Positions 60,201 to 63,200 of a stretch of 64,000 nucleotides of DNA are shown in pieces; the stretch's first letter is position 1, and each line of letters begins with the position of its first letter. The position numbers are program-made. The DNA lies in assembly GCF_030013205.1 (NCBI RefSeq), contig NZ_CP122648.1. One strand, 5' to 3'. The DNA is from Escherichia coli (GTDB lineage Bacteria > Pseudomonadota > Gammaproteobacteria > Enterobacterales > Enterobacteriaceae).

Positions 60201-63200
60201 GCAAGGCGCTGCGCCTGAGATTCACTCAACGTACCCAGCGTCATACACGCCTCCAGGCCCATCGCTTTTACCCCCTGCACCATCTGCTCCAGATAGGGCA
60301 TGTCGCGTTCGTGGGGATTCTTCCACGCCGCGCCCATACAGAAACGTGTCGATCCCGCCGCTTTCGCTTTTCGCGCCGACTCCAGCACCTGTTCAACTTC
60401 CATCAACCGCTCGGCTTCCAGCCCGGTTTTATAGCGCGAGCTTTGCGGGCAATATTTGCAATCTTCCGGACAAGCTCCGGTCTTAATTGACAGCAACGTG
60501 CTGACCTGCACCTGACGTGGATCGAAATGCTGACGATGCACCTGCTGCGCTTCAAACAGCAGATCCAGCAACGGTTTTTCAAATAATTCTGTGACTTGCG
60601 ACAATGTCCAGCGTGGGCGGTGAGCCATGGGGCTTCTCCAAAACGTGTTTTTTGTTGTTAATTCGGTGTAGACTCGTAAACCTAAATCTTTTCAATTTGG
60701 TTTACAAGTCGATTATGACAACGGACGATCTTGCCTTTGACCAACGCCATATCTGGCACCCCTACACATCCATGACCTCCCCGCTGCCGGTTTATCCGGT
60801 GGCGAGCGCCGAAGGTTGCGAGCTAATTTTGTCTGACGGCAGACGCCTGGTTGACGGTATGTCGTCCTGGTGGGCGGCGATCCACGGTTACAATCACCCG
60901 CAGCTTAATGCGGCGATGAAGTCGCAAATTGATGCCATGTCGCATGTGATGTTTGGCGGTATCACTCATGCGCCAGCCATTGAGCTGTGCCGCAAACTGG
61001 TGGCGATGACGCCGCAACCGCTGGAATGCGTTTTTCTCGCGGACTCCGGCTCCGTAGCGGTAGAAGTGGCGATGAAAATGGCGTTGCAGTACTGGCAGGC
61101 CAAAGGCGAAGCGCGCCAGCGTTTTCTGACCTTCCGCAATGGTTATCATGGCGATACCTTTGGCGCGATGTCGGTGTGCGATCCGGACAACTCAATGCAC
61201 AGCCTGTGGAAAGGCTATCTGCCAGAAAACTTGTTTGCTCCCGCCCCGCAAAGCCGCATGGATGGTGAATGGGATGAGCGCGATATGGTGGGCTTTGCCC
61301 GCCTGATGGCGGCGCATCGTCATGAAATCGCGGCGGTGATCATTGAACCGATTGTCCAGGGCGCAGGCGGGATGCGCATCTACCATCCGGAATGGTTAAA
61401 ACGAATCCGCAAAATGTGCGATCGCGAAGGTATCTTGCTGATTGCCGACGAGATCGCCACCGGATTTGGTCGTACTGGCAAACTGTTTGCCTGTGAACAT
61501 GCAGATATCGCGCCGGACATTTTGTGCCTCGGTAAAGCCTTAACCGGCGGTACAATGCCCCTTTCCGCCACACTCACCACGCGCGAGGTTGCGGAAACCA
61601 TCAGTAACGGCGAAGCCGGCTGCTTTATGCATGGGCCAACTTTTATGGGCAATCCGCTGGCCTGCGCAGCAGCAAACGCCAGCCTGGCGATTCTTGAATC
61701 TGGCGACTGGCAACATCAGGTGGCGGCTATTGAAGCGCAGCTACGCGAGCAACTTGCCCCCGCCTGTGACGCCGAAATGGTTGCCGATGTGCGCGTACTG
61801 GGGGCAATCGGTGTGGTCGAAACCACTCGTCCGGTGAATATGGCAGCGCTGCAAAAATTCTTTGTCGAACAGGGTGTCTGGATCCGGCCTTTTGGCAAAC
61901 TGATTTACCTGATGCCGCCCTATATTATTCTCCCGCAACAGTTGCAGCGTCTGACCGCAGCGGTTAATCGTGCGGTGCAGGATGAAACATTTTTTTGCCA
62001 ATAACGGGAAGTCAGCATGAGGGTTTCTGGCTACACTTTCTGCAAACTAGAAAGGAGGGTTCATGAAACTCATCAGTAATGATCTGCGCGATGGCGATAA
62101 GTTGCCGCATCGTCATGTCTTTAACGGCATGGGTTACGATGGCGATAATATTTCACCGCATCTGGCGTGGGATGATGTTCCTGCGGGAACGAAAAGTTTT
62201 GTTGTCACCTGCTTTGACCCGGACGCGCCAACCGGCTCCGGCTGGTGGCACTGGGTCGTTGTTAACTTACCCGCTGATACCCGCGTATTACCGCAAGGGT
62301 TTGGCTCTGGTCTGGTAGCAATGCCAGACGGCGTTTTGCAGACGCGTACCGACTTTGGTAAAGCCGGATACGGTGGCGCAGCGCCGCCGAAAGGCGAAAC
62401 CCATCGCTACATTTTTACCGTTCACGCGCTGGATGTAGAACGTATTGATGTCGATGAAGGTGCCAGCGGCGCGATGGTCGGGTTTAACGTCCATTTCCAC
62501 TCTCTGGCAAGCGCCTCGATTACTGCGATGTTTAGTTAATCACTCTGCCAGATGGCGCTATGCCATCTGGTATCACTTAAAGGTATTAAAAACAACTTTT
62601 TGTCTTTTTACCTTCCCGTTTCGCTCAAGTTAGTATAAAAAGGCTGAACAAGAAACAGAAAACACTGTAAATATCAATATGTTATGAAAGATTTAGTCTA
62701 AATAATAGACTGCATAATGCTACAAAACACAACATATCCAGTCACTATGAATCAACTACTTAGATGGTATTAGTGACCTGAGACAGAGCATTAGCGCAAG
62801 GTGATTTTTTGTCCTCTTGCGCTAATTTTTTGCCACACAACAGTCACATCTTCAAAAAATATGCAAAGCTTAGGGTTAATCGGCGGATGATTTTTGTCCA
62901 TTCATTTTGCGCGGGTAAGTTATGTGGTGGGTTATCGGCATCCTTTCCGTGGTTGTCATCGTGGCGACGCTTGTCGTTAGGTCACATCTGCAGGATATTG
63001 ATAATGACTATTAGCCATAAGTGGTTTCAACGCTTTGGGTAATGTAGTAGGCCACCCAGTTACCTGACTCATTAAATCTGTAAGCACAATTCAAACGAAT
63101 CGGACCGATATTATTGAATGTGCTGAGCGTTGTCCCACCAATACCATTTTTAACCAAAACTGTTGGGTTAGCAGATGATGACCCGGCTATCTTTATGTAA

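Follow-up and report, generated by a model that had tools for sequence, protein, structure and literature searches.

The known junction closest to the one considered here is the attR of K-12 lambda lysogens (P-C-O-B′), the parts of which follow each other in the order tI/sib, P1, H1, P2, X1, X2/F, H2, C, overlap and B′. The junction described below comes from a 64,000-nucleotide stretch of an Escherichia coli genome (contig NZ_CP122648.1 of RefSeq assembly GCF_030013205.1; hereafter "the window", in the coordinates of which positions are given unless stated otherwise), and it occupies the same host site and shows the same order of parts. The overlap and B′ are identical to those of the lambda lysogens, the attL has the lambda P′ arm, and Int and Xis are 99% and 96% identical to the lambda proteins. 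In contrast to lambda, its P arm represents another natural allele (86% identity), its C site has a T>C change at position −5, and the phage it belongs to carries P22-type morphogenesis genes and has all of its early functions deleted. The closest phage record is vB_EcoP-720R6 (ON470605.1, Lederbergvirus), which was deposited as a prophage with a uvrB-bio-ybhB flank. It shares the integration site, the orientation, the P-arm allele (97% over 329 bp), the head, portal and terminase genes (97%) and int/xis (98.5%) with the element in the window. However, 720R6 is full length (approximately 38 kb between attR and the end of int, at which the record breaks off), has the canonical core and differs in the receptor-binding part of its tailspike, whereas gp4, gp10 and 16 kb with the early and lysis genes are absent from the window element. 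A third relative is the approximately 17-kb remnant present in the sister strains ETEC4067 and K_EC180, where the host flanks are identical and the attR and the 3′ part of the tailspike gene are approximately 99.6–99.9% identical. This remnant is likewise a defective P22-like element with lambda-type int/xis, but it has the canonical core and another int-xis allele, and it has kept recT and other early-left genes and lost the head genes. The cryptic lambdoid prophages of K-12 (DLP12, Rac, Qin, and e14) are also deletion-eroded and non-inducible elements that keep their att junctions and often an integrase, although they use other integration sites and integrases and none of them resides at attB-lambda. 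An unbroken match to a 351-bp probe spanning the empty K-12 attB is present in 3,487 of the 5,424 complete E. coli genomes, leaving approximately 36% with an interrupted site, and 79 phage records, including lambda, 434, HK97, HK106 and Stx-converting phages, match the P arm of the window. Thus, a lambda-type attR next to ybhB is routine, and the element is of an already known kind in a public annotated genome, in which the att sites themselves are unannotated.

The minus strand of 62611–62835 can be assigned with high confidence as the attR produced by a lambda-Int-type integration at attB-lambda. The integrated phage combined structural genes of the P22-like (Lederbergvirus) type with an int-xis-att module of lambda, and it now persists as a 20.36-kb defective remnant, predicted to be non-inducible and locked in, the core of which bears a strain-specific T>C change. 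This strand contains the attR parts in the order B′ flank, core and lambda-type P arm, followed by the tI/sib hairpin, and reads ...GTTCAGCCTTTTTATACTAACTTGAGCGAAACGGGAAGG... across the junction. The 15-bp common core (62630–62644, minus strand) is GCCTTTTTATACTAA, while that of lambda and K-12 is GCTTTTTTATACTAA (misc_recomb 27724–27738 in J02459). It is the sole match to the lambda core with one mismatch at most in the 64-kb window, and 100 shuffles gave none. A four-way alignment of the window, lambda attP (J02459), the K-12 ybhC-ybhB intergenic region and the opposite prophage end placed the K-12 B′ flank directly 3′ of the core and the lambda P arm 5′ of it. The B′ flank (62611–62629, minus strand) reads CTTGAGCGAAACGGGAAGG and is identical to the ybhB-side attB flank of K-12 MG1655. 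Past this flank, the host DNA runs into ybhB-bioA-bioBFCD-uvrB, colinear with the empty attB; ybhB itself (62063–62539, plus strand, 158 aa), the host gene flanking attB-lambda on its bio side, was identified as an ORF and from the RefSeq annotation of the matching record. On the phage side, 62645–62835 is 86.2% identical to lambda 27534–27742 (J02459) by BLAST, and the ungapped alignment of the P arm with lambda 27566–27723 contains 24 mismatches in 158 positions. The initial annotation had described a lambda-type attR beside ybhB, a reverse-strand core at about 62630–62644 with its bio-side flank, a P arm resembling that of lambda with scattered substitutions, and a core departing from lambda at one position. 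The alignments to lambda attP and K-12 attB bore out each of these points, and both the coordinates and the quoted strings were correct. The K-12 ybhB-ybhC region does not continue uninterrupted beyond the core either, as the sequence stops matching it past 62644.

For the sites within the attR, each position was matched to its lambda counterpart with the help of the "int 1", "int 2" and "int 3" features of J02459 and the standard site map of lambda att; apart from P1, P2 and the core, the protein-binding sites are predicted from the alignment to lambda and the positions in this map. The 7-bp overlap of strand exchange, TTTATAC (62633–62639, minus strand, as for the following sites), has no mismatch to lambda and is identical in attL. 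The adjoining predicted C core-type Int-binding site (62640–62647, corresponding to "int 3"), the limits of which are those established for lambda att, is TCAGCCTT versus TCAGCTTT in lambda, one of the eight bases being different. The spacer between H2 and C differs from lambda at 6 of 19 positions. The position of the IHF site H2 (62667–62683), which is the one given in the lambda att literature, shows 2 mismatches in 17, and its bottom strand, TATCAATATGTTA, fits WATCAANNNNTTR with the core motif kept. The segment corresponding to the Xis site X2 and the Fis/A-tract (62690–62715) has 6 mismatches in 26, all common to other natural alleles, and the stretch from X1.5 through X2/Fis has 9 in 34. 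The positions of the Xis site X1 (62724–62736, TATGTTGTGTTTT) and the IHF site H1 (62749–62765) match lambda at all of their 13 and 17 bases, respectively, and so does the arm-type Int site P1 (62769–62779, AGGTCACTAAT, "int 1") at all of its 11. The other arm-type site, P2 (62738–62748, "int 2"), has a single mismatch in 11, at its edge, and its plus-strand sequence, CAGTCACTAT, is of the CAGCACTAT type and fits the arm-type consensus perfectly. The predicted arrangement is therefore that of an attR, with arm-type P1 and P2 and with putative IHF and Xis sites between the arm sites and the core. The site set of excision comprises P2, P′1, P′2 and the Xis and IHF sites, P2 being the arm site that excision uses (PMC2952878, PMC4880445).

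Beyond P1, the tI/sib hairpin (62790–62832, plus strand) consists of a 12-bp stem followed by a U-run (folding energy −28.4 kcal/mol, z = −5.0). It adopts the same fold as lambda 27525–27605, and it is located downstream of int in the free phage and parted from int in the prophage. It was revealed by RNA folding, since its loop exceeds the limit of the simple terminator scan, which missed it. An Rfam scan of the 60–64 kb region returned nothing relevant, the DicF match inside bioA being sub-threshold. The natural variation of the P arm was assessed on IMG/VR contigs containing the canonical CAGCTTTTTTATACTAA, which yielded 90 stretches, mostly of the attR form with a CTTGAGCG flank; 85 of them were usable, representing 63 distinct homologous alleles. 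The sib stem, P1, H1, P2 and X1 were almost completely conserved, the stretch separating X1 from C only poorly so, and the tI/sib hairpin was nearly invariant. As each difference between the window and lambda P arms occurs in 6–26 of the 63 alleles, the P arm of the window is an ordinary natural allele of a functional arm and not a decayed one.

The far-side attL, for which the initial annotation had advised a search, was located with its core 20.36 kb from that of attR, adjoining ybhC. Its core (21670–21684 in the numbering of the ETEC4079 locus segment) is the canonical GCTTTTTTATACTAA, and the sequence between int and ybhC, GAAGCCTGCTTTTTTATACTAAGTTGGCATTATAAAAAAGCATTGCTTATC..., is made up of the K-12 B arm, this core and the lambda P′ arm. 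The element is thus bounded by attR and a partner attL of the B, O, P′ form, both containing TTTATAC, and the cognate int and xis genes lie adjacent to the latter. Both proteins are full length, Int being identical to lambda Int at 351 of 356 residues and Xis to lambda Xis at 69 of 72. The gene order in ETEC4079 is bioA, ybhB, attR, 20 kb of phage genes, xis, int, attL and ybhC, the flanks being colinear with ybhB and ybhC of K-12.

The single difference in the core concerns its third base (T>C, G on the plus strand at 62642), at position −5 if the core centre is taken as 0. In the context GC(T>C)TT-TTTATAC-TAA, the change is three bases left of the 7-bp overlap, and it turns CAGCTTT of the canonical C site into CAGCCTT, which is a single-base departure rather than a different site. 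The T was kept in every related junction examined. Of the 5,426 complete E. coli genomes, ETEC4079 alone gave a 100% match to a 60-mer spanning the change. The 14 sister strains were one base off this 60-mer, and in the two that were aligned (K_EC180 and O139 W13-16) the differing base is the core position, occupied by T. The canonical core accompanies the same P-arm allele in vB_EcoP-720R6 and in strain CE10 as well. Scanning IMG/VR for the variant core plus C site, CAGCCTTTTTATACTAA, gave no copy in an att context; a single match on an unrelated AT-rich contig was discarded as a chance match. The seven bases of the overlap TTTATAC must be identical between recombination partners (PMC2952878), and since those of attL and attR are identical, the homology requirement for excision is intact. 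The first strand exchange occurs at the C and B core sites (PMC4880445), and several combined deviations from the core-binding motif lower the activity of wild-type Int (PMC10863862). As the exchange points have the change on their P-arm side, it would be transferred into attP by excision, with a wild-type attB left behind, and its effect would at most be a weaker binding or cleavage by Int at C.

Comparison with the sister strains bears on the origin of this base. The 61500–64000 part of the window is 100% identical to ETEC4079 (swine faeces, Belgium; NZ_CP122643.1) and 99.7–99.9% identical to 14 other swine strains. The 15 strains sharing this attR do not all carry the same remnant, as the two sisters that were checked contain the different, 17-kb one. 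Six substitutions and no indels separate ETEC4079 from ETEC4067 in 49.9 kb of the window, and three of the six fall within 1.8 kb around attR, at 61558 (bioA), 62642 (core) and 63390 (tailspike gene). This clustering suggests a segment with a separate, imported history. ETEC4067, which is from Belgium, and K_EC180, which is from Korea, are 100% identical over 23.5 kb here. Right of attL, ETEC4079 and the sisters do not differ in 25.5 kb of chromosome, while the 1.24 kb that comprise xis, int and the P′ arm contain 32 differences, which cease 113 bp short of the attL core. The prophage interior is unrelated or diverged, and the divergence fades from the 5′ end of the tailspike gene toward attR. 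This pattern indicates that the ETEC4079 element is a hybrid or a replacement of the lineage-typical remnant. One could go further and propose that it is a recent hybrid, formed when another P22-like phage with a lambda att entered the resident remnant by recombination at attL, and that the −5 C is a natural att-site lesion adding to the lock-in. This order of replacement and subsequent att decay, which is drawn from boundary positions and six SNPs, is conceivable, but we consider it rather doubtful.

Alternatively, the C in the core might be a consensus error at the boundary of a C/T run, where C1T6 was read as C2T5. The base stands at the edge of a T6 run and is present in a single strain among the 5,426 complete genomes, and the window differs from NZ_CP122643.1 by a one-T indel at 37477, so run-length errors do exist in the sequence of this strain. 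Nevertheless, the core change is a substitution that preserves the length, it appears in both the window and NZ_CP122643.1, which have differing consensuses, and ETEC4079 and ETEC4067 are separated by only those six substitutions and by no indel in 49.9 kb. Moreover, it belongs to a cluster of strain-specific substitutions beside an interior unlike that of the sisters. The location of the C within a segment of separate history favours a real variant, either inherited from a donor or generated during the exchange; an assembly error we regard as improbable.

The indel at 37477 (T6 in the window, T7 in NZ_CP122643.1) is located in a ~4-kb island (34002–38003) between dinG and rhlE. The extra T in NZ_CP122643.1 splits a 431-aa ORF (36708–38003), which is intact in the window and in ETEC4067, into two CDSs. 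Neither this ORF nor a 112-aa ORF of the island matched NCBIfam or PADLOC, while the 670-aa protein encoded by the island is a distant relative of the SopA/NleL-type HECT-like T3SS effector E3 ligases (NF011904, 81.6 bits; cut-off 500). At 36321, the window has A where the sister has G, which removes the ATG of a small ORF annotated in ETEC4067.

A true variant base could in principle reflect an altered core specificity of Int, in the manner of HK022 versus lambda, or integration at a secondary site. Core-type Int-binding sites set the specificity in the lambda/HK022 pair, and the changed base does fall in such a site. However, Int shares 99% identity with that of lambda, attL and the host flanks on either side are those of the canonical attB-lambda, and the canonical core is present in the aligned sister strains and in the closest phage with the same P-arm allele. 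Furthermore, IMG/VR contains the variant in no att context against 90 canonical stretches, which makes an altered specificity very unlikely.

The gene content behind the junction is that of a P22-like element. The last prophage gene before attR is annotated as a P22-type tailspike gene (63011–64000, minus strand), the 3′ part of which is in the window while the rest of the 690-aa reading frame runs off it; it faces bio, as expected by the initial annotation, which had placed the tail end of the prophage next to bio. Residues 1–229 of the tailspike, comprising the N-terminal head-binding domain, match PHROG tail-spike families (E = 1e-116). Between its stop codon and the sib hairpin, an ORF on the opposite strand (62922–63014, plus strand) encodes a hydrophobic 30-aa sequence (MWWVIGILSVVVIVATLVVRSHLQDIDNDY). 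It matched no PHROG family and may represent a small membrane peptide or no gene at all. According to RefSeq, the tailspike gene is followed, going away from attR, by ant/arc/mnt-type genes, the genes of injection proteins (one of them a pseudogene) and of the tail needle, P22-family coat, scaffold, portal and terminase genes, then Rz/Rz1 fragments and, directly after these, xis and int. The P22-type coat, scaffold, portal, terminase and injection proteins, the tailspike gene next to att and the 97% DNA identity to a Lederbergvirus record over 6.7 kb place the element in Lederbergvirus (P22-like), with gp4 and gp10 absent. Compared with vB_EcoP-720R6, two segments are deleted: 28233–44197, containing the endolysin, holin, Q, nin, replication, cII, cro, cI, N and recombination genes, and 18198–20277, containing gp10 and gp4. 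At the deletion joints (12472–12474 and 20173–20174 in the ETEC4079 segment numbering), the flanking homologies overlap by 2–3 bp. At the first of them, the tail-needle gene has become joined to the region where a small upstream ORF starts, and the resulting 316-aa CDS is listed as intact in RefSeq.

With this content, the picture implied by the initial annotation, an intact, SOS-inducible lambda-like prophage the excision of which may be altered by the core mismatch, had to be replaced by that of a 20-kb P22-like remnant. Although it retains attR, attL, int and xis in intact form, the element measures only 20.36 kb and carries P22-type head and tailspike genes. Immunity, replication, antitermination and lysis modules are not annotated in it: repressor, cro, N, O/P-type replication genes, Q, holin and endolysin are missing with the 16-kb segment. 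Only fragments remain of Rz/Rz1, gp4 and gp10 are gone, one injection gene is a pseudogene, and the mismatch lies outside the overlap (PMC2952878). An intact prophage is consequently hardly credible. In lambda, the expression of xis requires pL transcripts that are antiterminated by N. A search of the 800 bp preceding xis in the remnant gave no sigma-70-like promoter, and a terminator-like hairpin stands directly in front of the gene. With N and pL gone and no promoter-like site near xis, the element is predicted to be non-inducible and its self-excision to be unlikely, although some basal or read-through expression of int and xis is conceivable; since the repressor, replication, Q and holin/endolysin genes are also lost, SOS induction should give no excised circle. 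The importance that the initial annotation attached to the core mismatch for Int-mediated excision is not supported either, as the mismatch is outside the overlap, private to one strain and located in a prophage predicted to be non-inducible. The core change is private and probably neutral, in a dead element.

That the segment is a fossil attR-like copy inside a phage genome, of the type carried by the PPompW phages (internal P arm, core and ybhB-terminator-like flank, 81% identity), is next to impossible, because its B′ side is the K-12 flank continuing into ybhB-bioA-bioBFCD-uvrB and the partner attL abuts ybhC.

The copy in question, at 3501–3764 of LC567822.1 (PPompW_132418), is a decayed attR-like sequence inside an ompW-integrated EHEC phage, and other PPompW/Stx2a phage records contain the same internal copy. 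It consists of a P arm of the lambda type, a core lacking one T and a host flank that resembles the ybhB terminator, is 81% identical to the window, and is followed closely by the T3SS effector genes espO, nleG and espM. The copy has the appearance of a fossil left by an old aberrant excision on the bio side, by which host-adjacent DNA was taken into the phage.

For the remnant at ybhB, the following history can be proposed. A phage with P22-like structural genes and a lambda int-xis-att module would have entered attB-lambda between ybhB and ybhC, where Int, by the lambda paradigm, would have recombined attP with attB across TTTATAC. The integration would have placed the P arm and tI/sib on the bio side, with the P′ arm, int and xis ending up beside ybhC. 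A deletion running from Rz to the sequence immediately before xis has removed the lysis, Q, nin, replication, immunity and recombination genes, and gp4 and gp10 are lost too. Devoid of a pL/N system for the expression of xis, the element would stay locked in unless a lambda-type helper supplied Int and Xis.

For annotation, these results fix where a defective prophage of a porcine ETEC genome has its right boundary. The string CAGCCTTTTTATACTAACTTGAGCG could reveal a possible donor lineage among E. coli assemblies, and if the replacement followed by att decay were true, the element would be a datable natural case of Int-mediated module exchange. The core variant itself is a naturally occurring C site with T>C at −5, the partners of which are otherwise wild type, and as such it is a mild lead for work on core recognition by lambda Int.
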